A stretch of DNA of 63,886 bases, filler included, from an uncultured bacterium (lineage in GTDB: Bacteria > DAOPZR01), in assembly GCA_964637655.1 (NCBI GenBank). It is 3 parts of 3 records of this genome, joined end to end, with 100 filler letters (N's around TTAATTAATTAA, not from the genome) between each part and the next. Parts side by side here need not be neighbours in the genome. Positions count along the whole stretch, not along the records: positions 25,359 to 50,528 come from CAZWUZ010000020.1; 2 more parts are not named here. One strand, 5' to 3'. This document shows, one piece after another, positions 25,259 to 62,300 of the stretch; positions within the stretch are counted from its first letter, which is position 1; each line of letters begins with the position of its first letter. The notes beneath the pieces were generated by a model. It saw only the letters and a program-made list of their open reading frames with translations, did not search any database and had not been told where the DNA came from. The position numbers and the translations under genes were made by a program.

Positions 25259-25358
25259 NNNNNNNNNNNNNNNNNNNNNNNNNNNNNNNNNNNNNNNNNN
25301 NNTTAATTAATTAANNNNNNNNNNNNNNNNNNNNNNNNNNNNNNNNNNNNNNNNNNNN
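25259..25358. other. Artificial contig linker
   Basis: 44 N + TTAATTAATTAA (stops in all six frames) + 44 N. Confidence 0.98.
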
Positions 25359-31912: not shown

Positions 31913-32107
31913 TCTCCCGCGGGGAGAGGGTCAGGGTGAGGGATTCGTGCCGTGCCGGCACAGGTTTATCATCTCGTTTGCCATGTTCATGTGCCGCGCC
32001 GGAGGCGTCACTCCCGTCGTTATCGGGCACGCTGTTTCAGCGCCGGTCAGCAGCGTACCGTTTCCCGTTGGGGATGTCACTCCCGGGGTCAGTAATCGGG
32101 AGTCCAG
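31913..32107. repeat. Cluster of REP-like palindromes
   Basis: tctcccgcggggagagggtcagggtgaggg (31913-31942; related copy at 57131-57213) and gtcactcccg..tcgggagtccag (32076-32107; partial copy near 32007). Confidence 0.7.
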
Positions 32108-32176
32108 CCGTTGCCGGCGCGCATGACCGCTGCGTGAGCGTATGCTACCATGCCCGCATCCCGTCAGGAGGTCCGC

Positions 32177-32539
32177 ATGGCTGTCGACGACAAACCGCTG
32201 CTCCGTCCGCACCTGGTTATCCGCGAGGAGAGCGATGCCTGCGCGCTGCTGCATGACCCTGACCGCCGGCTCAGTTTCGTCCTCAATCCTGTCGGTCTCT
32301 GCCTCTGCCGCGCGCTCAACGGGAAGCGCACCCCGGCCGAGCTCGCCGCCGTCGTCCGCCGCACCTTCCGCACCGTCCCCGCCATCCTCGACGATGACCT
32401 CCGTTTCTTTCTCGACCAGCTGCTGCTGCATAACCTTGCCACCGGCGGCCGGCCGCGCTACCTGCGCCGCCGGGGCCGGCGCCTCGTCCTGACCGCGGCC
32501 GGGCGTGCCGCACAGCAGCGCGCCCGCGCAAACGCATGA
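32177..32539 (+). CDS. scmD: PqqD-family RiPP recognition element (SynChlorMet ScmD-like)
   Basis: VIREE.D..ALL.DPD...LNPVG...LNGKRT pattern; AGGAGG RBS; coupled to a radical SAM gene. Confidence 0.8.
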   Translation: MAVDDKPLLRPHLVIREESDACALLHDPDRRLSFVLNPVGLCLCRALNGKRTPAELAAVVRRTFRTVPAILDDDLRFFLDQLLLHNLATGGRPRYLRRRGRRLVLTAAGRAAQQRARANA

Positions 32540-33684
32540 CCCGACGCGCTGTCCGGCACCGGCCCGTCGCCACCGGCACCGGCCGGCACCGGCGCGCGTG
32601 GCCGCTGCGCCAGGTCTACTGCTACCTGACCGCCGGCTGCAACCTGCGCTGCCGCCACTGCTGGCTCGCCCCCGTGCACGAACCTGACCCGGCGGCCCTG
32701 CAGCAGCCCGTGCTCGACCTCACTCTCTGCAACGATGTCATCCGCCAGGCAATACCGCTCGGCTGCACCACCGTCAAACTCACCGGCGGCGAGCCGCTCA
32801 TGCATCCACACATCGGCCGTATCCTCGCCACGCTCCGCCGCGAACAGCTGGCGCTGACGCTGGAGACCAACGGCACGCTACTCGATGCCCCGCTTGCCCG
32901 CGCCATCGCGCGCTGCCGGACGCCGCATGTCGCGATCAGCATCGATGCGAGCGACGCGCGCACCCACGACCGGGTGCGCGGCGTGCCGGGCAGTTTCGCC
33001 CGCGCCCGCGCCGGCCTCCGCCATCTCGTCGCTGCCGGTATCCGCCCGCAGCTCATCTGCTCCGTGCTGCGCTGCACGCGGTCGCATCTCGCACGCATCG
33101 TGCGCTGGGCGGAGCGCCACGGGGTCGGGTCGGTGAAGTTCAACGTTATTCAGCCGGCGGAACGCGGGCGCGCGCTGCACACGGCCGGAGCCGTGCCCGG
33201 CATCCGCGCGCTCGTCGCCACCGGTGCGTGGATGGAGCAGCACCTCATCCCGCAATCGCGCATTCCCGTCTTCTTTCATCACCCCGCCGCCTTCCGCCCG
33301 CTCGGGCGCATGTTCAACGACGGCGGCAATTGCAGCACCTGCGGCATTCACAGCATTATCGGGGTGCTCAGCAGCGGCCACTACGCGCTCTGCGGGGTCG
33401 GCGCCACGGTGCCGGATCTCATCTTCGGCGATGCGCGCACGCAATCGCTGCGCACGGTATGGCGGCAGCATCCCGTGCTCAACCGCCTGCGCCGCGACCT
33501 CCCCGCGAAACTCGAGGGCATCTGCGCCCGCTGCGTCATGCGTGTGGTCTGTCTCGGCAGCTGCGTCGCGCAGAACTACTACACCACCCGCTCCCTCTTC
33601 GCCCCCTTCTGGTACTGCGACGCGGCCGCCGCGGCGGGGCTCTTCCCCGCAAGCCGTCTCCTGCCGGCGGCGAAACCGCGATGA
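32536..33684 (+). CDS. scmF: Radical SAM/SPASM peptide maturase (ScmF-like)
   Basis: YLTAGCNLRCRHCWLAP; GGEP; SPASM cysteines CSTCGI..LC..CARC....CLGSC..YC. Confidence 0.82.
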   Translation: MTRRAVRHRPVATGTGRHRRAWPLRQVYCYLTAGCNLRCRHCWLAPVHEPDPAALQQPVLDLTLCNDVIRQAIPLGCTTVKLTGGEPLMHPHIGRILATLRREQLALTLETNGTLLDAPLARAIARCRTPHVAISIDASDARTHDRVRGVPGSFARARAGLRHLVAAGIRPQLICSVLRCTRSHLARIVRWAERHGVGSVKFNVIQPAERGRALHTAGAVPGIRALVATGAWMEQHLIPQSRIPVFFHHPAAFRPLGRMFNDGGNCSTCGIHSIIGVLSSGHYALCGVGATVPDLIFGDARTQSLRTVWRQHPVLNRLRRDLPAKLEGICARCVMRVVCLGSCVAQNYYTTRSLFAPFWYCDAAAAAGLFPASRLLPAAKPR

Positions 33685-34868
33685 ACACCGTCATGCGCAC
33701 GCCACGCACTGTCGATATCGCCCTCACCGGCAGATGCAACCTGCGTTGCCGCTACTGCAGCCACTTTTCCAGCGCCGGCGAGGTGCGCGACCTCCCTGTC
33801 CGCTCGTGGCTCGCCTTCTGCCGTGAACTGAAAGAGAACGCCGTGCTCAGCGCCTGTCTGCAGGGCGGCGAACCGCTGCTCTACCCGGGTTTCCGCGCCG
33901 TCGTCCGCGGGCTGGTCGACGCCAATATGCGCTTTTCCGTGCTTTCCAACGGGACGCTCATCACCGACCCGCTCGCGCGATTTCTTTCCGGAACCGGGCG
34001 CTGCGATTACGTGCAGGTCTCGCTCGATGCCGCCGCGCCTGCCGGACATGACTTCGCGCGCGGCAGGGGTAGTTTCGCCCGCGCGCTGCGCGGGTATGCC
34101 CGCCTGCGCGGGCAGGGGGTCAGCGTCACCGTGCGGGTCACCATCCACCGCGGCAACGTGCACCAGCTGCCGGAGATCGCGCGCTTTTTGCTTGAAGATT
34201 TGGGGCTTGACAGTTTCGGCACCAACAGCGCCAGCCATCTCGGGCTCTGCCGCAGCAACGCGGCAATGGTGCAGTTGACCGCAACTGAGCGGTCGCTGGC
34301 CATGCGCCTCCTCCTCGACCTCGACCGGCAGTATCCCGGGCGCATCAGCGCGCAGGCGGGTCCGCTTGCCGAAGCGCGACGCTGGCAGCAGGTGCAGCTG
34401 GCGCAGGCGCGCGGGGAACGTTCGCTCCCCGGCGGTGGCTTTCTCACCGGCTGCGGCGGGATGTGGGAAAAGATCGCGGTGCGCGCCGACGGCATGCTCG
34501 TTCCCTGCCTGATGCTCCCCCACCTCGAACTGGGGCGCATCAACCGCGTGTCGTTGCGCGAGGTCTGGCAGCAGCATCCCGTCTACCGCGCGCTGCGCCG
34601 CCGCCACCGTATCCCGCTGACAAAGTTCCGTGCATGCCGCACCTGCACCTGGCGCAATTTCTGCACCGGCAACTGCCCGGGCATCGCTGCGACCATGCTC
34701 GGCGCTGTCGACCGTCCCAGTCCCGACGCCTGTCTGCAGCGCTTTCTTGCCGACGGTGGCGAACTGCCGGTGCTGCCGCCGGCGACACGCACCCGTCGTG
34801 GACCTGATGCATCATCCCCGAAATGTATTGTCGGGGATCCAGTAATTCGTCATCCCCGAGTTTCGTAA
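33681..34868 (+). CDS. scmE: Radical SAM/SPASM peptide maturase (ScmE-like)
   Basis: MRTPRTVDIALTGRCNLRCRYCSHF; GCGG..PC..CRTC....CTGNCP..DAC; ATG 33681 overlaps the upstream stop. Confidence 0.82.
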   Translation: MNTVMRTPRTVDIALTGRCNLRCRYCSHFSSAGEVRDLPVRSWLAFCRELKENAVLSACLQGGEPLLYPGFRAVVRGLVDANMRFSVLSNGTLITDPLARFLSGTGRCDYVQVSLDAAAPAGHDFARGRGSFARALRGYARLRGQGVSVTVRVTIHRGNVHQLPEIARFLLEDLGLDSFGTNSASHLGLCRSNAAMVQLTATERSLAMRLLLDLDRQYPGRISAQAGPLAEARRWQQVQLAQARGERSLPGGGFLTGCGGMWEKIAVRADGMLVPCLMLPHLELGRINRVSLREVWQQHPVYRALRRRHRIPLTKFRACRTCTWRNFCTGNCPGIAATMLGAVDRPSPDACLQRFLADGGELPVLPPATRTRRGPDASSPKCIVGDPVIRHPRVS

Positions 34869-34880
34869 TCGGGGATCCAG
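34811..34880. repeat. Two tandem REP-like palindromes
   Basis: tcatccccga-N8-9-tcggggatccag at 34811-34842 and 34849-34880. Confidence 0.75.
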
Positions 34881-34902
34881 ATAACATGCCCCGGAGGAAA
34901 CA

Positions 34903-35175
34903 ATGACCAGAGAGAACAGGAGCGGTAAACCGGAGTAGCAGGCCCCGAAACTCGCGGCGCTTAACGATGGTGAACTTGCCCGTGTTTCCGGCGGTACCGT
35001 AACCGGGGATTGCAAAATCGGCATGAGTCCCGGCGGCATCTGTCAGGCAGGCCAGTACCCGGCTGTCCCGCCGGGCCCCTGCGCCAGCGGCGGTACCGCT
35101 GCCCAGGGCATCTGTACCAGCGGCGGGCGGCCGGAACTCGGTTGTTCGACCGGCAGCCAGCCGAATTTTTCCTGA
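34903..35175 (+). pseudogene. Cys/Gly-rich RiPP precursor (five CxxG) with in-frame TAG at codon 12; disrupted or read through
   Basis: Hand translation MTRENRSGKPE*QAPKLAALNDGELARVSGG-TVTGDCKIGMSPGGICQAGQYPAVPPGPCASGGTAAQGICTSGGRPELGCSTGSQPNFS; GGAGG RBS at 34893-34897. Confidence 0.8.
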
Positions 35176-35196
35176 CGCACCGCCAGGCCGGCAGGT

Positions 35197-35457
35197 TCAG
35201 CGCAGCGCGAGTATCTGGTACCCGTGCTGCGCGACCGCTGCCGCGTCCCAGAATTGCACATCCTTCGTCTTCAGCACGTAGGTGATCTCCTTCGTGATGC
35301 TCCGGCCGGTGTACGCCTGCTTTTCCTGGTCCCATTCGCGCAGCAGCAGCGTGTCACCCGCAGCGCAGGCGAAATCCGCCAGCCGCAGCTCGAAGTTCTT
35401 CTCCCCCGAAAGTATTTTTTCGAAGTAGCACGACAACACCTTCTTTTCTATCTGCAT
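35197..35457 (-). CDS. DUF3850 / ASCH-like small protein
   Basis: YFEKILSGEKNFELR..GDTLLLREWD..YTGR pattern; GGAGG RBS. Confidence 0.8.
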   Translation of the reverse strand: MQIEKKVLSCYFEKILSGEKNFELRLADFACAAGDTLLLREWDQEKQAYTGRSITKEITYVLKTKDVQFWDAAAVAQHGYQILALR

Positions 35458-35534
35458 GCTGATCCTCCGGCACTCCCTTGCGGGTGCGCGTCGTTGCCTG
35501 CCCCGCCCCCTCACTGCGCTGGTGTCGATACCGC

Positions 35535-36941
35535 TCAGAAATCGAGCGGGCAGGGTCGTGGGGGAATGATATCATGCTCCGCGAGAAACACACGGTCGTC
35601 GGCGCTGAGCCCGCTGCTGACCACCGCCGCCATTTCAAATTCCCGGCAACGCAGGCGGCAGATATCCGCTGACGGGACAAAGGGCGAGCCGCTGGCGCTG
35701 ACGTTCTCATACTTGCAGCCGCCGGCGCAGTGATAACGGGCGAAACACGCGGCGCAGGCGGGAACAAACGTTGCCGGACTTCTGCCATACTGTTCCCGCG
35801 CAAGTTCACCGTCGAAAACATTTCCCAGTTTATACCCGTCCTGCCCGACAAAACGATGGCACAGGTAGACGTCACCGGTGCAGGAGACCCCGACCATTTC
35901 CCGCCCCGCGCCGCAGGCGTGGTACTGCCGCTTCTGCTGCACCAGGGCGGTCACCGCGGTGCGCAGCAACCCGGTGGCCTTGAGTTTCCTGAGGGCATCG
36001 CTGTCCCGGTTCCTGATGAGCGTCCCCCAGAGCGCGGCCTCTTCGGCAAAATGCCTGAAGAGTGCCGTCATGTCCCGCGGGGGCAGGGCGGTGCCCGCGC
36101 CGGGGTGCAGCGGAACCGAGGACGGGACGATGGTGATCGCTCTGAACCCGATATCCTGCATGGCCTCCCTGATGCGACGCGGATCGTTCGTCCCGGTCAA
36201 AACCGCGTGACCGCCCGTCTCCGGCAGTACCGTCAGCAGTTTCCGCAGTCCCGGCACGATCGCTGCATACGAACCGCTGCCGTCAGCAAACGGGCGCTGT
36301 GCATCCTGCACGTCACGCGGGCCGTCAAAACTCACCGTCACCCTGACCGCATGCTCCGCGAGGAACGCGATGCTGTCGTCGCTCAGCAGGGTCCCGTTCG
36401 TGGTTGCGTGGAATTCGATTTCCTTGCCCGTCTCCCGCGCTCTCCGGGTGGCATAGGCAACCACCGTGCGCAGCAGGGGGAAATTCAGGAACGGTTCACC
36501 GCCGAAGAACCCGAGGCGGATTCTTTTCATCCTGCCGGACTGTTCAATCAGCCAGTCCACCGTACGCCGGGCGGTCTGTTCTGTCATGACGCCGCCGGTT
36601 CCGTACCCGCCGCCGTCACCGTAGCAGTACACGCAGCACAGGTTGCACGACTGCGTCAGAAACAGCGCGACATTTGTCACCGGGGGGGCCGGCACTTGTT
36701 TCCCTGCCGCAGCCTGCGCCGGTGCTGCCTCGGCCAGCAGGCCTAGTCGGGCAAGTTGTCCGGTCCGGCTGGCATCTAGCGTGATGCCGGGTTCATCGGC
36801 CAGCCGCGCCAGCAACCGGGCGAGATCATCATCGATGACCGCGGCCCGCATATCACCGATGTTGATAACGTAGTTCCGGTCGTCATGCCGGAACTGATGC
36901 CAGGGTTTGCGGTGCACGCTACCGGTCCCGCCCCGCGACAT
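35535..36941 (-). CDS. Radical SAM/SPASM maturase with probable N-terminal RRE (Nif11-peptide associated, CteB/PapB-like)
   Basis: CNLCCVYC; FFGGEP; TTNG; CGAG..VYLCHRF..CAACFARYHCAGGC..C; lies directly downstream of the Nif11 precursor. Confidence 0.88.
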   Translation of the reverse strand: MSRGGTGSVHRKPWHQFRHDDRNYVINIGDMRAAVIDDDLARLLARLADEPGITLDASRTGQLARLGLLAEAAPAQAAAGKQVPAPPVTNVALFLTQSCNLCCVYCYGDGGGYGTGGVMTEQTARRTVDWLIEQSGRMKRIRLGFFGGEPFLNFPLLRTVVAYATRRARETGKEIEFHATTNGTLLSDDSIAFLAEHAVRVTVSFDGPRDVQDAQRPFADGSGSYAAIVPGLRKLLTVLPETGGHAVLTGTNDPRRIREAMQDIGFRAITIVPSSVPLHPGAGTALPPRDMTALFRHFAEEAALWGTLIRNRDSDALRKLKATGLLRTAVTALVQQKRQYHACGAGREMVGVSCTGDVYLCHRFVGQDGYKLGNVFDGELAREQYGRSPATFVPACAACFARYHCAGGCKYENVSASGSPFVPSADICRLRCREFEMAAVVSSGLSADDRVFLAEHDIIPPRPCPLDF

Positions 36942-36955
36942 GCATTGCTGGCCGG

Positions 36956-37213
36956 TCAGTAATTCATGCTGTGGCATTCCCCGAAGTCGAGCAGGCCGCA
37001 ACAGGGTATGGTAAAACCGCCGGCGATCTTTTCCAGTTCCTCCTCCGGCAGTTGTGCGCGCAGTTGCCTGACTTCCTCCGGGGTAAAATCGAAACCCTCC
37101 GCTTTGGCCATGGCCAGACGTTCCGCCTCGTTGGTGCAGGCCCCGACTTTCTTCGTGAAAGTTTCATCCGTCTTCAATCGCTCGATAAACGCCTTTGCCG
37201 ATTCGATGCTCAT
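36956..37213 (-). CDS. Nif11-like leader RiPP precursor, core FTIPCCGLLDFGECHSMNY
   Basis: MSIESAKAFIERLKTD...AKAEGFDFT.EE...EEELEKIAGG leader; AGGAGG RBS. Confidence 0.92.
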   Translation of the reverse strand: MSIESAKAFIERLKTDETFTKKVGACTNEAERLAMAKAEGFDFTPEEVRQLRAQLPEEELEKIAGGFTIPCCGLLDFGECHSMNY

Positions 37214-37495
37214 GGCATCCTCCTGGGTGCAGCTCTCCACCGTTTGTCCGCTCTGCACCGCACCTGCTCAGTGCATTGCTCATCGCCATCGTATCACCTG
37301 CAACCACCGCCGTCAAAGAAAACAGCCATCAGGGTCGTGTGAACGTTCCCGGGTACAGTGAACAACGCGCCCCGCACAGAAACATACACCGGCAGCGGCA
37401 TACAGTGCCGGTGCTGCCGGCCGCTCTGACGGGGGGATTCCGCGCTCATGCCTTCATCTTGACCGCATACCTACGTCAATATACAGTGCCTGATT

Positions 37496-38434
37496 ATGCT
37501 GACACCGCCTGACAGCTCCGTCCCGGCCGCGGTCGCGCCCGCGCCGGAACGCTTCACCTACCAGCACCTCAGGCCGGACGAACTCGAGCCGTTCCGCGCC
37601 TTCACCTACACCGCCTTCATCGAGGCAGCGGGAAAAAAACCGGATGCCGTTGTTGCGATCGGCGCCTTCCTCTATGGCCTGTTCCCGGCCGGGCTCGCGC
37701 TCGGGACGGTGCGCGCCCGCAAGCAGACACTCGTCGGCGAAATCCTTTCCCTGTGCGTTTCGCCCGACTGCCGCGCCGCGGGGGTCGAACGTGAACTTTT
37801 AGCACTGGTCGAGGTGGCCTTTCGCGCACGCGCCTGCAGTAAACTGCTATTCGTTTACGCCGTTGAAACGCACGGCCACCTCGCCGCTGTCCTTACCGCC
37901 GGCGGCTGGACCCCGCCCGCGCCGCGCTTCGCCCTGCATACCATGTCGCTCGACCGCATGCTCACGGGCAATCCGCTCCTCACGCGCGATATCCTGCCGG
38001 CCGGGTTTACCTATTTCCCGCTGGCTGAACTCGACGCCAATGATAGTGATGGCTTCATGGCCGGACCTGGCGCCGACGAGCGGCCGTCCGAGGTGTTTTT
38101 CAATCCGTACCGGTCGCTGGCAACACTTGAACCGGCAGTCAGCGTTGGCGCGCGTTGCGGAAATGAGCTTGCCGGCTGGGTCATCGCCACCCGGTCCCGG
38201 CCCGACCTTATCGCTTACACCGGCCTGTTCGTCCGCCGCCCGTGGCGCCACACCCCGCTCGCCGCCGCCCTCATGGGCGAGGCGCTGCGCCGCCAGCAGC
38301 AGGCCGGAGTGCCGCGGCTCTCCTGTATGATCCGCCATGATACTACGGCGATGCAAACCATGTTCCGCCGCCGGTTCGCCCATTCCGTCCTGACCACCCG
38401 CCACAGCGTGTGTTCAGAAAAAGATTGCTCGTAG
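37496..38434 (+). CDS. Tandem GNAT-fold acyltransferase
   Basis: EILSLCVSPDCRAAGV and YTGLFVRRPWRHT motif-A-like segments. Confidence 0.75.
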   Translation: MLTPPDSSVPAAVAPAPERFTYQHLRPDELEPFRAFTYTAFIEAAGKKPDAVVAIGAFLYGLFPAGLALGTVRARKQTLVGEILSLCVSPDCRAAGVERELLALVEVAFRARACSKLLFVYAVETHGHLAAVLTAGGWTPPAPRFALHTMSLDRMLTGNPLLTRDILPAGFTYFPLAELDANDSDGFMAGPGADERPSEVFFNPYRSLATLEPAVSVGARCGNELAGWVIATRSRPDLIAYTGLFVRRPWRHTPLAAALMGEALRRQQQAGVPRLSCMIRHDTTAMQTMFRRRFAHSVLTTRHSVCSEKDCS

Positions 38435-38664
38435 GCACAGCCGCGAATTATTGCTGTATGCGGTTAGCTGCGATGGCAACGGAGAAAGGCGGGGAGAAAA
38501 AATATCCGGGCGGCGTCTTATAACACCACAAGCCGTCGGCACTGCTCAACTGTGCCGGCAGCCATCGTGCTGCAATCACGAACCATAGACACAGGCAGTC
38601 GCAGAGCGACGCCACCCGCCTGCATCATGCACCATGGAGCGATGCTGCCAGCACCGCCGCAATC

Positions 38665-38911
38665 TTAGCTAGGAACCTTCCCCCCCTCAGACCAACATAA
38701 CTCACACAACCACCCACCTGCCACATGCTCCAAGTCACTGTCCGTCAACTGCTGTGACGACAATTTGAATTCTTCCGCAGTAAAATCGAAGCCCTCCGCC
38801 CTGGCGAATGCCAGGCGCGCCGCCGCATCCTTGCAGGGCCACTACGTTCTTCGCGAAACCCTCATCCGTCTTCAGTCGCTCGATACACGCCTTTGCCGAT
38901 TCAATGCTCAT
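38665..38911 (-). pseudogene. Second Nif11-like precursor with +1 frameshift; restored core WLCELCWSEGGKVPS
   Basis: Removing one base at 38836-38838 gives MSIESAKACIERLKTDEGFAKNVVACKDAAARLAFARAEGFDFTAEEFKLSSQQLTDSDLEHVAGG-core; span is 247 nt (3n+1); AAGGAGG RBS. Confidence 0.85.
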
Positions 38912-39110
38912 GCCGCCCTCCTTTGGTTCCGTCACCCGACATTAGGCTGCCGCTTATCCGGCAACAATAGCAACAATAGTACCTCAATCTGCCATGGCAG
39001 GTCAAAAACACTTCCGTCACAAAGGATTTTTCTCGTCCTATCCGGACAGTAGTTTTTGCGCAAACAGACGGGATTGGCGCAACCGGCCGCGATTACGGTC
39101 GCCAGCAGGC

Positions 39111-39140
39111 AAAACAAAAGACAGGCGCAATTGCCTGTCT
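39111..39140 (-). terminator. Intrinsic terminator downstream of the displaced tRNA 3' fragment
   Basis: agacaggc-gcaatt-gcctgtct stem followed by TTTTGTTTT on the minus strand. Confidence 0.65.
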
Positions 39141-39162
39141 GAACGGGAAATATCAAATGAAC

Positions 39163-39206
39163 ATGGCAGCGTAATCTGGATTTGAACCAGAGACCTTCAG
39201 GTTATG
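39163..39206 (-). repeat. Duplicated 3' half of tRNA-Met (att site)
   Basis: 39175-39206 is identical to 40833-40864 (32 nt); the match extends with 4 mismatches through the CCA end. Confidence 0.9.
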
Positions 39207-39390
39207 GCAACTTTACGCGCGCATCGTATTGATTAGCGGCATGTTATCAATCCTTTGGTATTGTTCTGGTTCAATATCGGGCCATCGATATTCAGACAAG
39301 ACTGTCAGAATATCCCGGGAATTAGTCACCTGGTTTGCCCTTGACTAATTCCGCCAAATGCGTCATAATAAGGTAGCGGAGGGTGTGAAT

Positions 39391-40623
39391 ATGACAGACA
39401 ATAGATATCGGGCGAGATCGCTGGCGGGGGCGGTGGCGGATGCGCTCAAGGCATTCCCCGTGGTCATCGTCAGCGGCATGCGCCAGACCGGCAAGACCAC
39501 CATGTTGCGGCGGGATCCGCTGTTCCGCCGGCGGCACTATATCACCCTTGACGATTTCGCTTCCCTGTCCGCCGCGCAGAACAATCCCGAAGCGCTGGTC
39601 GGCGGAACGAAACCCATAACCATTGACGAGGTGCAGCGGTTACCGGAACTGCTCACCGCGATCAAGGCCACGGTCGACCGTGATCGCCGCCCCGGTCGCT
39701 TTCTGCTATCCGGTTCCGCTAATCTCGCCCTGGCCTTCCGTGCGGCGGAAACACTGGCCGGGCGGGCAGTCACCCTGGAACTGACCGGACTGACACGCCG
39801 GGAACTGCACGGTGCCATCGGCAAACGACCGGTCCTGGTCGATCTGCTCGAAGGCAGAAATCCTGCTGGCATTGCCTGGGATGGTTCCGCGGTGCACGCT
39901 GCTGAAGTGTCGGCTGGCGGCCTGCCGGAGGTCACGCTCGGCCACCCGCAGCGCGCGCGCTGGTTTGACGGTTTTATCGCCACCTATCTCGAACGCGATC
40001 TGCGTTCCTACGCCCAGGTCGGCGACCTCATCTCCTTCCGGATCCTGATGAAAATGGCAGCATTGCGCACAGGCAATATTCTTAATGAAACTGAGCTGGC
40101 TCGTGATGCGCGCCTGACCGTCAAAACCACCGGCCGCTACCTCGGCCTGATGGAAGCGGGCTATATCCTCCGCCGCCTGCCGCCATTCCTGCGTAATCGA
40201 ACCACGCGCCTGATGAAAACGCCGAAGATATTCTGCAGCGATTCCGGGCTGGCAGCGGTATTGGCCGGAGCGGCCGGTTTTGCGGATGCGCCGGACGATC
40301 CGCTGCGCGGGGCTCTGCTCGAAACCTATGTGCTGCAGAACCTGATGGGGAATGTCGCCGGCGAATCGCCCGCCATCACGCCGCATTATTGGAATGTCAG
40401 CGGCCGCCACGAAGTCGACTTTGTCTTCGAGTGCGGCAGGCGGGCGATTGCGGTCGAAGTGAAGTGGGCCTCACGCTGGAATGAACACGACCTGTCTGGC
40501 CTGCGCGCCTGGCAGGAAACGACGCCCGGTGGCGGACTGGCGCTACTGGCCTGCCAGACCCGCACTGCAACACAACTGGGAGAGAATCTCTGGGTGGTAC
40601 CGCTCGGCGATTTGCTACGCTGA
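39391..40623 (+). CDS. AAA_14 ATPase with DUF4143 (PD-(D/E)xK-like) C-terminus
   Basis: GMRQTGKTT, IDEVQ, LAGR, KTPK...DSGL and EVDFV..AVEVK motifs; promoter TTGACT-17-CATAAT at 39341-39369. Confidence 0.9.
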   Translation: MTDNRYRARSLAGAVADALKAFPVVIVSGMRQTGKTTMLRRDPLFRRRHYITLDDFASLSAAQNNPEALVGGTKPITIDEVQRLPELLTAIKATVDRDRRPGRFLLSGSANLALAFRAAETLAGRAVTLELTGLTRRELHGAIGKRPVLVDLLEGRNPAGIAWDGSAVHAAEVSAGGLPEVTLGHPQRARWFDGFIATYLERDLRSYAQVGDLISFRILMKMAALRTGNILNETELARDARLTVKTTGRYLGLMEAGYILRRLPPFLRNRTTRLMKTPKIFCSDSGLAAVLAGAAGFADAPDDPLRGALLETYVLQNLMGNVAGESPAITPHYWNVSGRHEVDFVFECGRRAIAVEVKWASRWNEHDLSGLRAWQETTPGGGLALLACQTRTATQLGENLWVVPLGDLLR

Positions 40624-40809: not shown

Positions 40810-40821
40810 CGTGACTTGGTA

Positions 40822-40898
<77 letters not shown>

Positions 40899-50528: not shown

Positions 50529-50628
50529 NNNNNNNNNNNNNNNNNNNNNNNNNNNNNNNNNNNNNNNNNNNNTTAATTAATTAANNNNNNNNNNNNNNNN
50601 NNNNNNNNNNNNNNNNNNNNNNNNNNNN
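50529..50628. other. Artificial contig linker
   Basis: 44 N + TTAATTAATTAA + 44 N. Confidence 0.98.
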
Positions 50629-51747
50629 ATACGTCTGCGTGTACCCCGCCTTGGCCAGCATCTTCATCATCTTCGGTTTGGTGAACGCCTCCGCCAGAAA
50701 GATGACGTCAGGATGCTCCTTGTGGATTTCGCTGATCACCCAGTGCCAGAAGACCACCGGCTTGGTATGCGGGTTGTCGACGCGGAAAATCTTCACCCCG
50801 TGACTTATCCAGAATTCGAAAATCCGCTTGAGTTCCAGCCAGAGCGACTCCCAGTGCACTGAGTAGAAATTGAAGGGATAAATGTCCTCGTAGCGCTTGG
50901 GCGGGTTCTCCGCAAACTTGATCGTGCCATCCGCCTCCCGGTAATACCATTCCGGATGCTTCGGCACGTAGGGATGGTCGGGGGAGCAGGTATGCGCGAT
51001 ATCGAGTGCCACTTCCATCCCGTGCTGGTGGCATGCCGCCACGAACCGGTCGAAATCCTTGAGGGTGCCGAGCCCCGGCTCGATAGCATCATGACCGCCA
51101 CCCTGGAAACGGTTGCCCACCGCGTAGGGGCAGCCCGGTTCGCCCGGTTCCGCCTTCAATGAATTGTTCTTCCCCTTGCGGTTGGTCTGCCCGATGGGGT
51201 GGATGGGAGTCAGGTAGATGACATCGAAACCCAGGTGCTGTATTTCCGGCAGGCGGGCAATCATGTCGTCGAAGGTGGCGCTGGCGTTCGGATCGGTACC
51301 CTGCGAGCGCGGCCACATCTCGTACCACGCGGCATAGCGCGCCCGCACGCGATCGACCTTGACCTGCAGGACGCGGTCGTACTGCGTGACCACCTGCGGT
51401 GTCTTCGTCGGCCACCCCTCGATGGTATACTCGTAAAACCCGACCTCCTCGACGAGAAACTCCGCGCGGTGCCGGTCGTTGTCGATATGTTCCATCGGCT
51501 CGCGATGCCACTGCTTCGCCCCCACCTGGCGCCAGAGGAGGTAGGCCTCGAACGGCTCATGCCCCTCCTTGTAGATATCCGCTTCAACCGTGACGGTATC
51601 CCCGACCTCGCGCTTGACGGGCCAGCGCCCGCTGTCGAGTTCAGGGGTCACCCCCTCGATGATCACGCTCTTGGGCACCAGCGGAATCTTTTTTCCGGGG
51701 ACAAACTTCGCCGGGCAGTTGGGGTACTTCTCCTTTTTCGTCGCCAT
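50629..51747 (-). CDS. glgE: Maltose-1-phosphate maltosyltransferase GlgE, 3' truncated
   Basis: WYEMWPRS, PIHPIG, RKGKNN, AENPPKRYEDIYP and FRVDNPHTKP motifs. Confidence 0.95.
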
Positions 51748-51758
51748 GATCCGCTCCG

Positions 51759-52970
51759 TCAGTTCTTGCGCTGCAGGCGGGCGTAAAGCGCCGCCACTTC
51801 CTTCGCCACTGCGGTCCAGCTGTACTTCGCCACCGCCCGCGCGCGCCCCGCCTTCCCCATCGCCACACGCTTCGCCGGGTTATCGAGCAGGTCGTTGACA
51901 GCCGCCGCAAGGTCCGCGGAGTACTTCGCCGGGTCGCGCGGTTCGAACGGGCTTTCGCTGAGCTGGTCGAGTTTGACCAGCGTTCCCGTCTCACCGTCGA
52001 CCACCACCTCGACGATGCCGCCCACCGCGCTCGCCACCACTGCCGTCTCGCAGGCCATGGCCTCGAGGTTGATGATGCCGAACGGTTCGTAGATGGAGGG
52101 GCAGACAAAGACCTCGGCGTGGGTGTAGAGCTCCTTCACTGTCGCCTTGTCGACCATCTCCTGTATCCAGATGACCCCGTCACGCTGCGCCTGCACTTCA
52201 GCCACCGCCTCGCGCATCTCCTGCGCGATTTCGGGGGTGTCGGGCGCGCCCGCGGCCAGCACAATCTGCACGCCGGGACGGATGTCCTTGATGGCGCGCA
52301 CGAGGTGCACTATCCCCTTCTGCCGCGCGATGCGCCCGACAAAGAGAATGAACGGCTGCTGCGGGTCGATGCCGTATTTCGCGAACGAGTTTTTCGTCGT
52401 CACCGGCTGATATTCGTCGGTGTCGATGCCGTTGGGGATGATGACCACCTTCTGCGGGTCGACGTCGAACAGGCGCTCGACATCCTCCTTCATCCCCTGC
52501 GAGACCGCGATGACCGCGTCCGCGCGCTCGATGGCGGTCTTCTCCACCCACGTCGAAAGGTGGTAGCCGCTCCCGATCTGTTCCACCTTCCACGGGCGCA
52601 GTGGCTCCAGCGAGTGGCAGGTGATGACCAGCGGAATCTCGTACATAATCTGCGTCATGATCCCGGCAAAATGCGCATACCAGGTGTGGCAATGCACGAC
52701 ATCCGCCCGTGCATCCGTCGCGTTGAACGCGAGTCCGCGCGCAAAGGTGGTCAGCGGCGACTGCAGTTTTTTCGGGGCCTGCGCAAAGGTCTGCGTGTCC
52801 GCCGCGTACCCCTTCACCACCGGGTTTCCCTTCGGGATGTCCTGATCGCCGAAGCAGCGCACTTCGACGTCGATCAGTTTCGCCAGTTCCCGCGTCAGGT
52901 ACTCGACGTGCACCCCGGCACCGCCGTAATTGTAGGGGGGATACTCGTTGGTGTAGATAAGCGCTTTCAT
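51759..52970 (-). CDS. glgA: GT4 glycogen synthase / maltose-1-phosphate synthase (GlgM-like)
   Basis: EYPP..YGGAGVHV, HTWY, HSLEPLRPWK and CPSIYEPFGIINLEAMAC motifs; promoter TTGACA-18-TACAAT at 52998-53027. Confidence 0.92.
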   Translation of the reverse strand: MKALIYTNEYPPYNYGGAGVHVEYLTRELAKLIDVEVRCFGDQDIPKGNPVVKGYAADTQTFAQAPKKLQSPLTTFARGLAFNATDARADVVHCHTWYAHFAGIMTQIMYEIPLVITCHSLEPLRPWKVEQIGSGYHLSTWVEKTAIERADAVIAVSQGMKEDVERLFDVDPQKVVIIPNGIDTDEYQPVTTKNSFAKYGIDPQQPFILFVGRIARQKGIVHLVRAIKDIRPGVQIVLAAGAPDTPEIAQEMREAVAEVQAQRDGVIWIQEMVDKATVKELYTHAEVFVCPSIYEPFGIINLEAMACETAVVASAVGGIVEVVVDGETGTLVKLDQLSESPFEPRDPAKYSADLAAAVNDLLDNPAKRVAMGKAGRARAVAKYSWTAVAKEVAALYARLQRKN

Positions 52971-53023
52971 GGTGACCTCCGCGGCAGGATTTGTTTCATT
53001 GTAGCGTCGGCGCCTGTTGCCTG

Positions 53024-54685
53024 TCAATCATGCCAGCTGTCGCGTGACCCGTTGCGCCACGGCTGCACATGGCTGCGGAACGCGCTCCAGGCAGGATCGT
53101 TGCCCAGCCAGCCGTAGGCAACGGGCGCTGGTACTATCCCGGCGGCGCGCAAACGGGCCGCCGCATAGTCGTCAGCCAGTTCCGTGGCCAGCGGATGCTG
53201 TTCCCGGTTCAGTTCTTCCAGCCGATAGGCCAGATAGGCCCGCACCCCGTTGGCCACCACGGGCTCGCGGTGCCGCAGCAGCGGGAGCAGCGCGGGATAT
53301 GCTTCACTGCCGGTGCTCTGCCAGTGCTCGGAGAGCCAGACCAGCGGCCGGTCATTGCCGCGCATGGCCTGCCAGACATTGAACCGTGCGCAGGCATAGT
53401 CGTCGGGAAAGAGCGCGGTGATGACCAGCGCAATGAGCAGTGCCGCCACATAGCGCCGCGCCAGCCAGACGAAATTGCGCCGCTGCCGCAATTTCACCGC
53501 CATGATGACCAGCCCGGCAATAACCAGCAGTGTCCCGGCGATGCCCAGCAGCCGCGCCGGGGTCAGCCCGTTGTACGCGATGTAGAGCTGGAGGCGGCGC
53601 AGTACGCCAAGCGCCATCATCGCATCGAGCGCCACCCAGCCATAGGCGAGCGTGCGCGTCACTCCTTCGCGCCGGTCGGGCACCAGCAGCGGCGAGGTTG
53701 CCAACCCGATGACCACGGTGCTCAGCAGCAGCGCGAACGTCAGCCAGCCCGCACCCTCATGCGCGTACTGCGAGTAGGTGATGCCCGCCGGCAGCGCGCC
53801 ATGCAACCACAGGTAGCGCGCATCGAACAGGTCGTAGGCAAGGAACGTCAGGCAGGCGGCACCAAGCACCGCCAGCGCCGTGACCCGTACCAGCAGATGT
53901 TCCCCCTGCGGCGAACGCTGCTCCTCGCGCTGCGTGTTGATGAAATTCGCCACCGCGCGCGGCAACAGCGGCGTGACGAGACCAGCCATAAGCCAGAGCA
54001 TGAGTCCCCAGAAGAACAGATGACCGAACCCGGGCACGAGTTCCAGCACGAGATCGATAATCTCCGCGAACCGGGCGAACACGATATCCCAGTAATGCCC
54101 GAGCACGGGGTTCGCCGCGACGAAGATCAGGCCGAAGACGACTGCCGTAAATGCCGCTGCCAGCAGCGGGATGAGGATGAGCGCACAGGCGCGCCACTTG
54201 CGGTCGCGCACCAGTCCCCACAGCCCGAGCAGCCGCGCCGCATTCGCCCCCAGATGCAGCAGCGCCATCGACCAGCCCATGGCATACGAGAAGACGCCGG
54301 CCACCGTCCCTTCCGCAAGCCGCCGCAGCCCGGTGGCGCAGAAAACCGCGAGCGTGCCGAGCAGCAGCCAGGCCAGCGCACTCCCCCCGAAGGTCAGGTC
54401 CCATGCCTGCCGGCAGGCAAGCAGCGCGAGGTAGGCGACGAGCAGGTAGACCTCGCGCGTGCGCACCCGCTCCGGACGCAGCGCCACGAGCCCGAGCGTG
54501 ATGACCAGGAAAAAGAGACCCGTGCCCACCCCGCCGTTGAACTGGTAGAGCAACAGGTCGGCAAAGAGTACTCCCGCGATGATGAACAGTCCCTGCCGCA
54601 GCGTCACGGGCTCACCGTCCGCCGGGCTCACCAGCCAGCGTTCGCGCAGTCCCGGTCTGGCCGGCGCGCTTTCACTCTGTGCCAT
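53024..54685 (-). CDS. DUF4153/DUF4173 membrane protein
   Basis: F..ANPV, YSQYAHEG and RRLQLYIAYNGLT..R motifs. Confidence 0.8.
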   Translation of the reverse strand: MAQSESAPARPGLRERWLVSPADGEPVTLRQGLFIIAGVLFADLLLYQFNGGVGTGLFFLVITLGLVALRPERVRTREVYLLVAYLALLACRQAWDLTFGGSALAWLLLGTLAVFCATGLRRLAEGTVAGVFSYAMGWSMALLHLGANAARLLGLWGLVRDRKWRACALILIPLLAAAFTAVVFGLIFVAANPVLGHYWDIVFARFAEIIDLVLELVPGFGHLFFWGLMLWLMAGLVTPLLPRAVANFINTQREEQRSPQGEHLLVRVTALAVLGAACLTFLAYDLFDARYLWLHGALPAGITYSQYAHEGAGWLTFALLLSTVVIGLATSPLLVPDRREGVTRTLAYGWVALDAMMALGVLRRLQLYIAYNGLTPARLLGIAGTLLVIAGLVIMAVKLRQRRNFVWLARRYVAALLIALVITALFPDDYACARFNVWQAMRGNDRPLVWLSEHWQSTGSEAYPALLPLLRHREPVVANGVRAYLAYRLEELNREQHPLATELADDYAAARLRAAGIVPAPVAYGWLGNDPAWSAFRSHVQPWRNGSRDSWHD

Positions 54686-55154
54686 GCGCTTCTCCTTTGC
54701 CGGGCGGGGCACCGACAAGAATCCCCGCGCCCCACGGCTGATACGTCATGCGCCATCCGTGTTTTTTCAGCAGCGTGCGCAACGCGCCGCGGCGGCGGTC
54801 AGCACCATAGACCAGCAGCAGGCCGCGCGGCGGCACGCGCGCCAGTTCGCGCTCCGGAAATTTCCCGCAACGTTCATCCCAGAGCAGCAGATGCGTTTTC
54901 CCGCGCGGCAAAGCGGCAAGACAGCGTATGCTCTCACCTGCGCGCTTTTTTGCCGCCAGCTGCCGCAGCGCCGGCGCGTCACTTACCAGCGTCAGCGACC
55001 AGCGCAGCGGCTGCGCGCGCAGCCCGGCCAGTACCGCACCCGCCACGGCCGCGTCGTCAGTCAGCACCAGCGTGCGGCGCGGGGCCAGCAGTTGCGTCAG
55101 TAGGTTGAAATAGTTGTGCCGTTGCCGGGTTTCGTCTGCCGGCCGGAGCGCCAT
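54672..55154 (-). CDS. Hypothetical protein
   Basis: Fills the gap between co-oriented genes; no motif recognised. Confidence 0.4.
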   Translation of the reverse strand: MALRPADETRQRHNYFNLLTQLLAPRRTLVLTDDAAVAGAVLAGLRAQPLRWSLTLVSDAPALRQLAAKKRAGESIRCLAALPRGKTHLLLWDERCGKFPERELARVPPRGLLLVYGADRRRGALRTLLKKHGWRMTYQPWGAGILVGAPPGKGEAHGTE

Positions 55155-55155
55155 C

Positions 55156-56154
55156 TCAGTTGCCCAGGTATTTCCGGCTCATCGCCTCGTGCTGCTCGAT
55201 GGTGTAACTGAATTCATGCGACCCGTCCCCGCGCGAGACGAAGTAGAGATAGCGCTCATCCGCCGGCCGCCAGGCCGCTTCGAGCGATACGCGCCCGGGA
55301 CTGCAAATCGGCGTGGGGGGAAGCCCGTCATTGCGGTAGGTGTTGTAGGGCGACTGGATGTCGAGATCACGGAACGAGAGTACATCCTTGTGGATGCCGA
55401 GCGCGTAGAGCACCGTGGCGCACGATTCAAGGCGCCGCCGGTTGGCAAGACGGTTGTAGAAGACCGCCGCGACGATGGCGCGCTCGCTGTCGCGCTTTGC
55501 CTCCTTCTCGACGATGGAGGCGACGATAAGTTTCTCATAGAAGGAAAACTGCGGTTTCGTCGTGCCGCCGCGTTCCACTTCTTCCATCACTTCGCGGAAG
55601 CGCTTCGTCATCTGCCCGACGATTTCCGCCACCGGTGTCCCCGCCTCGAATTTGTAGGTGGCGGGAAAGAGGTAGCCCTCGAGATGCGGACGGATCTGCC
55701 CCGCGATGGCCGCCACGCGCTCCTGCTGCGCCGTCGCCTGCATGAATTCCTCGGGACGACAGAGCCCCGCCACCGAGAGCCGCACGGCAATTTCCTCGCG
55801 CTTCAGTCCCTCGGGGATGACTACCGTGGCCTCATACACCTGCCCGGCCGCGATGGTGGCAATCATCGCCGCGGGAGAGACGTCGGACGGAACGCGATAG
55901 GTGCCCGCTTGCAGCTTTTGTGCCTGCCCGCTGAGGTCCATGTAAAGCGCGAGGAAGCGCGGTGTTCGTCCGATCCCTTTGCTGACCAGCAGTTCCGCGA
56001 CTCTCCCTGCCGAGGCCCCGGGCGGAATGGTCAGCGTGCCGGGAAGCGCCTGCGACGGCGAGTTGATCTCCTGCTGGTATTTTCCGTGCAGGTAGTACCC
56101 TGTGCCGGCCAGCGCCAGCAGCACAAAGAGGATTGCCGCACCAAGTTTACCCAC
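55156..56154 (-). CDS. mltG: Endolytic transglycosylase MltG
   Basis: IPEG, LEGYLFPATY, ASIVEKE and SPYNTY..GLPPTPI motifs. Confidence 0.95.
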   Translation of the reverse strand: MGKLGAAILFVLLALAGTGYYLHGKYQQEINSPSQALPGTLTIPPGASAGRVAELLVSKGIGRTPRFLALYMDLSGQAQKLQAGTYRVPSDVSPAAMIATIAAGQVYEATVVIPEGLKREEIAVRLSVAGLCRPEEFMQATAQQERVAAIAGQIRPHLEGYLFPATYKFEAGTPVAEIVGQMTKRFREVMEEVERGGTTKPQFSFYEKLIVASIVEKEAKRDSERAIVAAVFYNRLANRRRLESCATVLYALGIHKDVLSFRDLDIQSPYNTYRNDGLPPTPICSPGRVSLEAAWRPADERYLYFVSRGDGSHEFSYTIEQHEAMSRKYLGN

Positions 56155-56563
56155 GCGCTGCCTTCCTTTCGTCCAGCCAGCCCTGCAGGATGACCACCGC
56201 CGCCTGCCGGTCGCTTTTCGCCGCGCGCGCCGCGCGCGACAGTCCGCCCTGCAGCATCGCTTCCTCCGCCGTCAGCGTCGAGTAACGCTCATCCGTCAGT
56301 TCCACCGGGATGCTGCTGTGCGCCTGCAGCCGCCGCGCAAATCCGCGCACGCGCACCGTCTGTTCCGAATCGCTGCCGTCGACATTGAGTGGCAGCCCGA
56401 CCACCACGCGTTCGAGCGGGTCGGGATACGCGGCAAGGCGCCGCGCCACTTCCCCCGACTTGGGCGGCCAGTCACCCACGGGCGAGGCGAGTGTCTGCGT
56501 CTCGTCCGAGACCGCCACCCCCACCCGCTTCCTGCCGACGTCCAGCCCGAGTACCCGTCCCAT
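56147..56563 (-). CDS. ruvX: RuvX/YqgF nuclease
   Basis: LGLDVGRKRVGVAVSD, VVGLP, DERYST and D..AA..ILQ motifs. Confidence 0.93.
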   Translation of the reverse strand: MGRVLGLDVGRKRVGVAVSDETQTLASPVGDWPPKSGEVARRLAAYPDPLERVVVGLPLNVDGSDSEQTVRVRGFARRLQAHSSIPVELTDERYSTLTAEEAMLQGGLSRAARAAKSDRQAAVVILQGWLDERKAARG

Positions 56564-56823
56564 TACCGGTAAATGTCTTTGCGCAGACCAATATCGAGAA
56601 TGGTAACTGTTTTCTGCCGGTCAGCGATTTCATATACTACCCGGTAGTGCCCGACACGCACACGGTATCCGGTACGACCGGTCAGTTTCCTGCTCCCCAC
56701 CGGACGGGGCGTTCTGGCCAGCGCGGTCAGTGCCGCCTGTATCCTGGGAAAGTCACTTGCCGCAACCCGTTTCAGTTGCCGGATCACCCGCGGTAATACC
56801 GCAACCTGGTACCCGCCGTTCAT
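56563..56823 (-). CDS. RelE/ParE family toxin
   Basis: PRPVGSRKLTG..YRVRVGHYRVVYEI..RKDIYR pattern. Confidence 0.9.
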   Translation of the reverse strand: MNGGYQVAVLPRVIRQLKRVAASDFPRIQAALTALARTPRPVGSRKLTGRTGYRVRVGHYRVVYEIADRQKTVTILDIGLRKDIYR

Positions 56824-57020
56824 GCCCGTCCGCGGACCGCTGCCAGCGCCCGTGCCAGCGAAACCGGTTTGCCCTTGCTCTTTACCGCCCGATCATAGGC
56901 ACGAATGGCGGCCAGTTCCTCGAGTTCATCCAGCACGCGTTTGTACTCGCGCATGCCCAGCAGCACTCCGGCCTTCCTGCCGCGCGTATCCACCACCACC
57001 TGCGCATTTCTGATGTGCAT
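56820..57020 (-). CDS. Cognate antitoxin
   Basis: VVDTRGRKAGVLL..EY...LEEL..IRAYD pattern; ATGA overlap with the toxin. Confidence 0.8.
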   Translation of the reverse strand: MHIRNAQVVVDTRGRKAGVLLGMREYKRVLDELEELAAIRAYDRAVKSKGKPVSLARALAAVRGRA

Positions 57021-57130
57021 GACGTTCCCCTCTCGAACCGGAATACACATTCTGACGACAATACCGCACAGAACGACTTCAGATGGTTGCCATTCCGTCA
57101 GCAAAACTGAGTGCAACGTAACTATTCAGC

Positions 57131-57213
57131 CACCCTCACCCTTCCCTCTCCCGCCGCAGGCGGGAGAGGGTGTTGCCTTCCCCCTCTCTGAGGGGGAAGG
57201 TTGGATGAGGGTG
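57131..57213. repeat. Composite palindrome (CCCTCACCC..CCCTCTCCC REP-like doublet)
   Basis: Two internal hairpins enclosed by caccctca/tgagggtg. Confidence 0.75.
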
Positions 57214-57226
57214 AACAGTTGCTTAG

Positions 57227-57389
57227 CAGGTTGTTGAAAAATCGACCGTTCCCTATTTCACATGCCGTCACTCCCGAATTATGTAATCGGGAGTCCAGTC
57301 GTTTCCGTCGCTGATGCTGGATTCCCGATTACTGACTTCGGGAATGACGGATCACTTGTCGTCGTCCTCCACAGCTTTTCAACAACCTG
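57227..57389. mobile_element. MITE with 14-bp terminal inverted repeats and TTAG target duplication
   Basis: CAGGTTGTTGAAAA (57227-57240) and TTTTCAACAACCTG (57376-57389); TTAG at 57223-57226 and 57390-57393; internal inverted REP pair at 57266-57349. Confidence 0.8.
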
Positions 57390-58589: not shown

Positions 58590-59158
58590 CGCGCCGCGCG
58601 CGCCCGCGTGATCACCTGCTGCAGTTCATCCAGCGCGCGCTCCACTTCGTCGTTGACCACCACCACGTCATACTCGCCGCGGCGGTCCATCTCCGCCTGT
58701 GCCGCGGCCAGGCGCACGGCGATGTCCTCGTCGCTGTTGGTGCCGCGCCCGCGCAGGCGCTGCTCGAGCACCTGCATCGACGGCGGCGCGATGAAGACAA
58801 ACAGCCCCTCCTCGCCCCGCTGCTTGAGCTGCAGCCCGCCCTGCACGTCGATGTCGAGCAGCACGTCGCGCCCGGCGGCGCGCATGCGCGCCACCTCGCT
58901 CTTGAGCGTGCCGTAGCAGTTCTTGTGCACCTGCGCCCACTCGAGGAAGTCCCCCGCGTCGACGCGCCGGCGGAACTCGTCATGGGTGATGAACAGGTAA
59001 TCCTTCCCGTCCACTTCCCCCTCGCGCGGCGACCGCGTGGTCGCCGACACGGAGAACCCGAGGTTCGCGTCGCGCGTCAGCAGTTCCTTCGCCAGCGTCG
59101 ATTTGCCCGCGCCCGAGGGGGCGCTGAGGATGATCAGCAGTCCGTTGCCGGTCGTCAT
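58586..59158 (-). CDS. gmk: Guanylate kinase
   Basis: APSGAGKST, SATTR.PREGE.DG.DY, YGT and DIDVQG motifs. Confidence 0.97.
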   Translation of the reverse strand: MTTGNGLLIILSAPSGAGKSTLAKELLTRDANLGFSVSATTRSPREGEVDGKDYLFITHDEFRRRVDAGDFLEWAQVHKNCYGTLKSEVARMRAAGRDVLLDIDVQGGLQLKQRGEEGLFVFIAPPSMQVLEQRLRGRGTNSDEDIAVRLAAAQAEMDRRGEYDVVVVNDEVERALDELQQVITRARAAR

Positions 59159-61332: not shown

Positions 61333-61333
61333 G

Positions 61334-62299: not shown

Positions 62300-62300
62300 C

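Follow-up and report, generated by a model that had tools for sequence, protein, structure and literature searches.

The genes for peptide modification at positions 32150-38911 of the DNA described here raise the question of whether they constitute one biosynthetic system or two. The window, by which we mean the whole stretch of 63,886 nt, consists of three contigs of a metagenome-assembled genome (MAG; GenBank assembly GCA_964637655.1) at 1-25258, 25359-50528 and 50629-63886, joined by N spacers at 25259-25358 and 50529-50628, and all the genes for peptides that are synthesized ribosomally and then modified post-translationally (RiPPs) lie on the middle one, contig C20 (window 25359-50528). 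The MAG comprises 485 contigs and 3.99 Mb with 65.5% GC, is 90.55% complete and 3.64% contaminated, and belongs to a phylum with only two species in the genome collection searched; the public runs containing the sequence are wastewater and landfill metagenomes. An initial annotation of this DNA listed radical S-adenosylmethionine (SAM) enzymes, precursors, a RiPP recognition element and a GNAT between 32076 and 38911, and proposed that two RiPP systems clustered near a tRNA gene may share tailoring and export. The reading that we favour, with moderate confidence, is of two independent RiPP modules that are merely neighbours on one contig, the second being the likeliest to work and the first being probably inactive or decaying.

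Module A consists of a PqqD protein resembling ScmD, then ScmF and ScmE, and a ScmA precursor that is divergent and carries five C-x-x-G units; in module B a Nif11-leader precursor is joined by a radical SAM/SPASM maturase of TIGR04064 ('NlpM'), a tandem GNAT and another Nif11 precursor. Every gene listed initially is present (32150-38911), as are the convergent units, the divergent GNAT and a nearby tRNA gene, which is tRNA-Met, but two of the three precursors are disrupted, which had gone unnoticed, and an 86-aa DUF3850/ASCH gene between the units had been overlooked. The search with hidden Markov models (HMMs) that the annotation had proposed placed ScmE, ScmF and the TIGR04064 enzyme above their curated cut-offs and ScmD below, and gave nothing for ScmC.

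One system or two

The two modules were compared with 35 ScmE loci from other genomes, whose ScmE proteins are 44-59% identical to that of the window. Within flanks of up to 5 kb, none of these loci holds a TIGR04064-like radical SAM enzyme or this GNAT, the best radical SAM cross-match being 63.5 bits. Scm genes were likewise not seen at 12 TIGR04064 loci elsewhere, a check confined to gene lists, for L100 and L188. Module B itself recurs in the same genome, since contig C31 (L096) carries an intact paralogue of it with no Scm genes. The initial annotation had named a failure of the units to co-occur elsewhere, together with a lack of cross-activity, among the observations that would tell against its proposal, and no co-occurrence was found in the 35 ScmE loci.

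The alternative is a composite system, in which a single pathway has enzymes that cross-modify all three precursors and a single export route. The units are adjacent and convergent within 7 kb, and neither has a peptidase or exporter of its own on the contig; the remark in the initial annotation that ScmC, a peptidase and an exporter are all missing is borne out by profile searches, which found none on C20. Against a composite system stand the absence of module B from all 35 ScmE loci and its recurrence on C31 without Scm genes, as well as differences in leader type (Y-x-x-P-x-L in ScmA against a Nif11 domain ending in Gly-Gly) and in base composition, with GC content at third codon positions (GC3) of 0.87 for ScmF and 0.75-0.77 for the TIGR04064 enzyme and the GNAT. 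The co-occurrence counts in particular weigh heavily, and we regard the composite system as very improbable.

Sharing of export fares no better than sharing of tailoring. All three leaders had been described as ending in a double-Gly motif; this holds for the Nif11 leaders, where Gly-Gly is conserved, but not across the ScmA family, whose aligned leader motif is Y-x-x-P-x-L and which has no conserved double-glycine site. An ABC exporter accompanies ScmE in 10 of the 35 loci (by clustering of open reading frames, ORFs), and the one representative that was scanned has no C39 domain. The genome-wide search for a C39 exporter that the annotation had suggested gave one C39 domain, on contig C158.

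The SynChlorMet cassette and its precursor

Module A is a reduced SynChlorMet (SCM) cassette that is probably inactive or decaying in this assembly. Its two radical SAM/SPASM enzymes, ScmF (32536-33684, plus strand) and ScmE (33681-34868, plus strand), score 471.1 bits on TIGR04251 (model positions 1-353 of 353) and 513.1 bits on TIGR04250 (model positions 1-358 of 358); the cut-off is 400 for both, and the ScmE match spans residues 7-363 of 395. The PqqD-family peptide-binding protein ahead of them (32150-32539, plus strand), the RiPP recognition element of the annotation, scores 26.3 bits on PF05402 (cut-off 23.4), reaches 50.6 bits on the ScmD model TIGR04248, below the cut-off of 100, and is 28-40% identical to ScmD of other loci; its gene lies at the position expected for the cassette, with its stop codon overlapping the start of ScmF. 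The set usual elsewhere is D-E-F plus ScmA. The window resembles it in having ScmE and ScmF above equivalog cut-offs, a PqqD-type partner upstream, and downstream a small gene with the Y-x-x-P-x-L leader of the family and the C-x-x-G repeats that characterize it; it differs in lacking ScmC genome-wide, in a ScmD below cut-off, in a ScmA with no TIGR04252 match, in the replacement of a Tyr codon by TAG, and in a gene order, D-F-E-A, that is matched by only one of the 35 loci (L016), the usual order being D-E-F. A working cassette would have ScmD as the binder of the Y-x-x-P-x-L leader, with the C-x-x-G repeats as the targets of ScmE and ScmF. A search under 'SynChlorMet' and under the Scm gene names found no publication on SCM chemistry, in agreement with the statement in the annotation that no characterized SynChlorMet product was known.

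The small gene (34903-35175, plus strand) is recognized by its ribosome-binding site, its ATG and its alignment with the family. A GGAGG sequence lies 6 nt ahead of the ATG at 34903, and the frame runs for 11 codons to a TAG at 34936-34938 (codon 12), which is followed by 79 further codons; the next in-frame ATG, GTG or TTG after the TAG is at 35023, within the core. A scan for leader-like motifs plus C-x-x-G yielded small ORFs at 23 of the 35 ScmE loci, 27 in all, and 21 of the 27 were aligned with the window peptide. In this alignment of 22 sequences Pro15, Cys37 and Gly40 are invariant, and the TAG falls in a column that holds Tyr in all 21 relatives. TIGR04252 is matched by only five of the 22, the window peptide giving no match at E<=0.1. 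As judged from the alignment, what had been annotated as a CxxG precursor is a divergent member of ScmA (TIGR04252), a family already named, which the earlier reading had missed, with a stop at the most conserved residue of the leader. Searched with a family profile, the genome shows a single ScmA (E 4.2e-11), the next matches having E values of at least 0.1, and because this only precursor stops at codon 12 the SCM module has no substrate in the assembly. Together with the lack of ScmC, for which TIGR04249 gave no match in the whole genome (90.55% complete), this leads us to regard module A as probably inactive or decaying. One point weighs on the other side: ScmC, though found by tblastn at 23 of the 35 ScmE loci (28 by ORF clustering), is not universal, 12 loci having none within their flanks by tblastn, and its absence here therefore need not mean decay. 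More generally, a cassette that looks complete by its enzymes can have a broken sole precursor, and it is advisable to read precursors codon by codon before choosing a cluster for expression.

Could the TAG be decoded instead, whether as pyrrolysine, through a suppressor tRNA or by leaky read-through, so that a full-length precursor would arise, perhaps in small and regulated amounts? The gene is otherwise intact, the TAG stands at a position that needs a residue, and near-cognate reading of UAG as Tyr is conceivable. The genome, however, gives only weak matches to PylS, at the level of aminoacyl-tRNA synthetases in general (22.9 bits against a cut-off of 178), and none to PylD. TAG behaves as an ordinary stop codon, ending 261 of 1258 long high-GC3 ORFs (21%), with the open frame continuing beyond it in 16.5% of cases as against 19.3% after TAA. 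One tRNA lies in the window, and no whole-genome scan for suppressor tRNAs was made. Pyrrolysine or other TAG recoding was accordingly rejected, and decoding of the TAG in any of these ways seems to us exceedingly improbable.

Two observations concern the SCM genes more widely. Across the end of ScmE, at 34814-34876, are two tandem copies of a hairpin with an 8-bp stem (ATCCCCGA ... TCGGGGAT), which supply its stop codon and about the last 30 codons (fold z-score -2.99); the genome holds no further copy, and a 42-nt piece occurs in landfill-metagenome contigs in unrelated contexts. At one of the comparison loci (L026, 3962-5572) ScmC is fused to an N-terminal region resembling signal peptidase I (S26), which hints at a possible route for removal of the SCM leader.

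The Nif11 module and its paralogue

In module B the TIGR04064 maturase (35535-36941, minus strand) exceeds its cut-off of 518.7 with a score of 587.4 bits. The intact precursor 1 (36956-37213, minus strand) encodes 85 aa and matches the whole of the Nif11-leader model TIGR03798 (positions 1-68 of 68; 76.4 bits, cut-off 32.3); its core of 19 residues contains three Cys, no Lys and one C-x3-D, its stop codon lies 14 nt upstream of the ATG of the enzyme, and a promoter-like site is found at 37316-37288. Sites of this kind stand ahead of both precursors and of the GNAT; their number, seven, compares with 1.2 +/- 1.2 in shuffled sequence. The tandem GNAT (37496-38434, plus strand) matches PF00583 (Acetyltransf_1) in two stretches. 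Precursor 2 (38665-38911, minus strand) is frameshifted near 38830, with its N- and C-terminal parts in different frames: a good ribosome-binding site is followed by 27 codons that read as a Nif11 leader, and from about 38830 the rest of the leader and the core, with two Cys and one Lys, continue in another frame, where alone positions 26-68 of the Nif11 model are matched.

The paralogue on C31 (1709-15983) has the gene order Nif11 precursor, LanM (1150 aa), LemA/TPM genes, two Nif11 precursors, GNAT, TIGR04064 enzyme and a nonribosomal peptide synthetase (1667 aa). The GNAT there is 56% identical to that of the window and its start abuts the stop of the radical SAM gene, whose product scores 562.8 bits on TIGR04064; the LanM, with its further Nif11 precursor, is 1.7 kb from the paralogous module. 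In a quick tree the radical SAM enzymes of the window and of C31 are sisters, with a Shimodaira-Hasegawa-like approximate likelihood ratio (SH-aLRT) of 85, which fits an old duplication and means that the two loci are not independent witnesses. The genome as a whole has six Nif11-leader matches above cut-off, one of them on contig C97.

As far as decay is concerned, the favoured reading presumes that the TAG in ScmA and the frameshift in precursor 2 are real and would be fixed in the population. They could instead be consensus errors or minority alleles, taken up by a low-coverage assembly where precursor genes vary between strains, both modules being intact in the living population, independent, and both productive. 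Each broken gene has a single defect, with a strong ribosome-binding site and open frame on either side, and is otherwise intact; every enzyme gene gives an end-to-end match to its model; and the assembly is of low coverage, with a word depth of only 3-5 at both defects and one run for each site. Logan contigs show both defects identically, X2 spanning the TAG (34822-34989) with no differences and X1 the frameshift (38645-38950) with no gaps, yet these contigs come from one study, which may be the source of the MAG itself, and the sole run from another study (X5) covers neither defect. On the other hand, the housekeeping genes scanned on the same 25-kb contig all matched their Pfam models and look unbroken, so that random error would have had to spare all of them and yet strike two of the three small precursor genes; the end-to-end matches of the enzymes likewise speak against pure error. 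Since the support for the defects is shallow and comes from a single study, we keep error or minority alleles as an explanation that is unlikely but carries real weight.

As to what module B may make, we turn from the state of its genes to their relatives. A profile search of the PDB found as the best solved relative of the TIGR04064 enzyme 5wgg_A (E 2.2e-72, query residues 7-438), and 5wgg/5why we take to be CteB, a SCIFF thioether maturase. After TIGR04064 itself the next NCBIfam matches are PapB (239.4 bits), QhpD (236.6) and the SCIFF maturase (211.2), the enzyme being below each cut-off (340, 453 and 425 respectively). All three of these form Cys thioethers, and the substrate motif of the ranthipeptide or PapB type is Cys-X3-Asp. 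The core of the window precursor has one C-x3-D. With 239.4 bits against the 340 of NF047865 the enzyme is not a member of the PapB family, though it may work in a similar way. The likeness to thioether-forming SPASM maturases includes the N-terminal part of the alignment and extends to the substrates, as TIGR04064-linked cores are Cys-rich with Asp or Glu three or four residues on; the difference is that the leader here is a Nif11 domain. The sample of such precursors numbers 16 (two from the window, two from C31, one from L100, one from a Prosthecochloris plasmid, and ten from another phylum, these last from the nine of 401 genomes with TIGR04064 above cut-off), and by eye 15 of the 16 cores contain Cys and 10 contain C-x-x-[D/E].

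We suggest that precursor 1 would be made, that its Nif11 leader would be bound by the radical SAM enzyme, and that the enzyme would cross-link Cys residues of the 19-residue core, a step inferred from its full-length alignment with a solved thioether SPASM maturase. Several observations weigh against it: two pairs among the cores counted for C-x-x-[D/E] are near-identical, C-x3-D stands in place of that motif in the intact window core, and the Prosthecochloris precursor beside nlpM (L188, 7212-7490) has no Cys after its Gly-Gly, from which it appears that not all TIGR04064 enzymes may make Cys cross-links. Thioether chemistry is thus our best guess for this enzyme, and one that is about evenly balanced. 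The loci elsewhere (Prosthecochloris aestuarii pPAES01 and L189-L197) share with the window a full-length enzyme above cut-off and an adjacent precursor whose Nif11 leader ends in Gly-Gly and whose short core, of 13-19 residues, bears Cys; they differ in that the tandem GNAT belongs to the gene set here and on C31 and to none of 12 others. A metagenome scan for TIGR04064 loci yielded two true relatives (L100, L101) among 79 loci, the family is absent from the sister genus, and we found no publication on its chemistry or using its name.

The GNAT may point to a second modification. It is 30% identical over 243 residues (E 9e-28) to WP_012412981.1, and its C31 paralogue 29% identical over 298 residues, nearly the full length (E 2e-30). 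That protein is NpuN, according to PMC13060382, and attaches long-chain acyl groups to Lys1 of the Nif11-leader peptide NpuA (PMC13060382, PMC8784127); GNATs are given for 184 of 2,346 NHLP/Nif11 clusters (PMC8784127). It was matched in the plasmid collection, on pNPUN01 of Nostoc punctiforme, where its gene is flanked by a Nif11 precursor and NHLP export genes and adjoins a LanM gene. The nostolysamide (npu) cluster of N. punctiforme PCC 73102, with NpuA (Nif11 precursor), NpuM (LanM), NpuN (tandem GNAT) and an NHLP exporter, resembles module B in its Nif11-leader precursor, in a tandem GNAT, alignable from end to end at 29-30% identity, and in C39-ABC/HlyD-type NHLP export, the C31 paralogue even having a LanM nearby. 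It differs in that the neighbour of the GNAT here is a radical SAM/SPASM protein rather than LanM, that the GNAT here falls in a separate six-member clade, that the exporter is unlinked, and that the only intact window precursor has no Lys.

On the favoured reading the NpuN-like GNAT would transfer an acyl group from acyl-CoA to a Lys side chain. Three of the four module-B-type cores in the genome (precursor 2 and both on C31) contain Lys, the exception being the intact precursor 1. The peptides of module B and of its C31 paralogue might, in combination, be ring-closed by the TIGR04064 enzyme and then fatty-acylated on Lys by the GNAT, which we put forward tentatively, as possible rather than probable. 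Several points count against the link to NpuN. In a FastTree phylogeny of 36 rows, the selidamide-type acyltransferases KspN and PhaN not being among them, the window and C31 GNATs form a separate clade of six rows away from NpuN with 100% local support; the P-loop of the N-terminal domain reads, by eye, R-x-x-G-x-E and not R/Q-x-x-G-x-G/A; the 12 other TIGR04064 loci seen have no neighbouring GNAT; and the two loci that pair radical SAM enzyme and GNAT are paralogues within one genome and so not independent. Searches for further relatives gave little at high similarity: a word-based search found the GNAT itself, its C31 paralogue and one weak match only, an HMM search found 997 representatives at E<=0.001 and 7 at E<=1e-30, several of those scanned being fused to DUF4915 or glycosyltransferase domains, 400 other genomes gave no match at E<=1e-15, and the profile matched no PDB sequence at E<=0.01.

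Export would have to be supplied from elsewhere. The sole C39 domain of the genome lies on C158 in an operon of a TolC-like gene followed by NHLP-HlyD (TIGR03794, 269.9 bits, cut-off 156.2) and NHLP-ABC1 (TIGR03796, 521.5 bits; the contig breaks off after model position 371 of 710, the match starting at position 1). The peptides of module B would be cut after Gly-Gly and exported by this C39-ABC/HlyD/TolC system. Directly upstream of the operon (L097, 3942-4999) are a different GNAT, of the Acetyltransf_18 type (311 aa), and a 75-codon ORF whose resemblance to the ScmA leader profile is very weak (E 0.13).

By their sequence matches both halves of the locus belong to catalogued kinds, and the pairing of a TIGR04064 enzyme with an NpuN-like GNAT, found twice in one genome, is the only element that could, modestly, be called new; the supplementary cluster lists belonging to PMC8784127 and PMC13060382 may already include GNAT clusters with radical SAM genes. 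If the proposal is correct, the product would be a selidamide-like lipopeptide with radical SAM cross-links in place of lanthionine, or on C31 in addition to it, and the relationship of the GNAT to NpuN suggests that peptide lipidation is not bound to lanthipeptides. The four natural substrate cores of the two paralogous TIGR04064 enzymes also form a convenient set for studies of the reaction.

The tRNA-Met border and neighbouring genes

The tRNA-Met gene (CAT anticodon; 40822-40898, minus strand) was identified by ARAGORN and scores 67.6 bits on Rfam RF00005. A copy of its 3' end (39163-39206, minus strand) repeats 40821-40858, and beyond the copy, at 39090-39162, is the old flank of the tRNA with its terminator, including a terminator-like hairpin at 39140-39119. 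In the sister genus (G001) nothing intervenes between the tRNA and this flank, and here a 1.6-kb insert therefore separates the two; on this comparison the duplicated tRNA-Met end is taken to mark an insertion next to the cluster. No integrase was seen in the insert, and its only content is an AAA_14/DUF4143 ATPase gene (39358-40623). Synteny with G001 concerns the tRNA-Met side only, its contig ending 400 bp beyond the tRNA flank, so that the left border of any island is not placeable.

Between the two modules, the small DUF3850/ASCH protein of 86 aa (35197-35457, minus strand; PF12961, 67.9 bits) is encoded downstream of the TIGR04064 gene and on the same strand. It was considered as a member of module B and rejected, as tblastn found no match to it in the other TIGR04064 loci searched, and it is probably a passenger. 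The flanks of C20 are made up of housekeeping genes, among them those for BipA, a Na/Pi transporter, a TrkA channel, LolA, GlyS/GlyQ, RecO and IspH.

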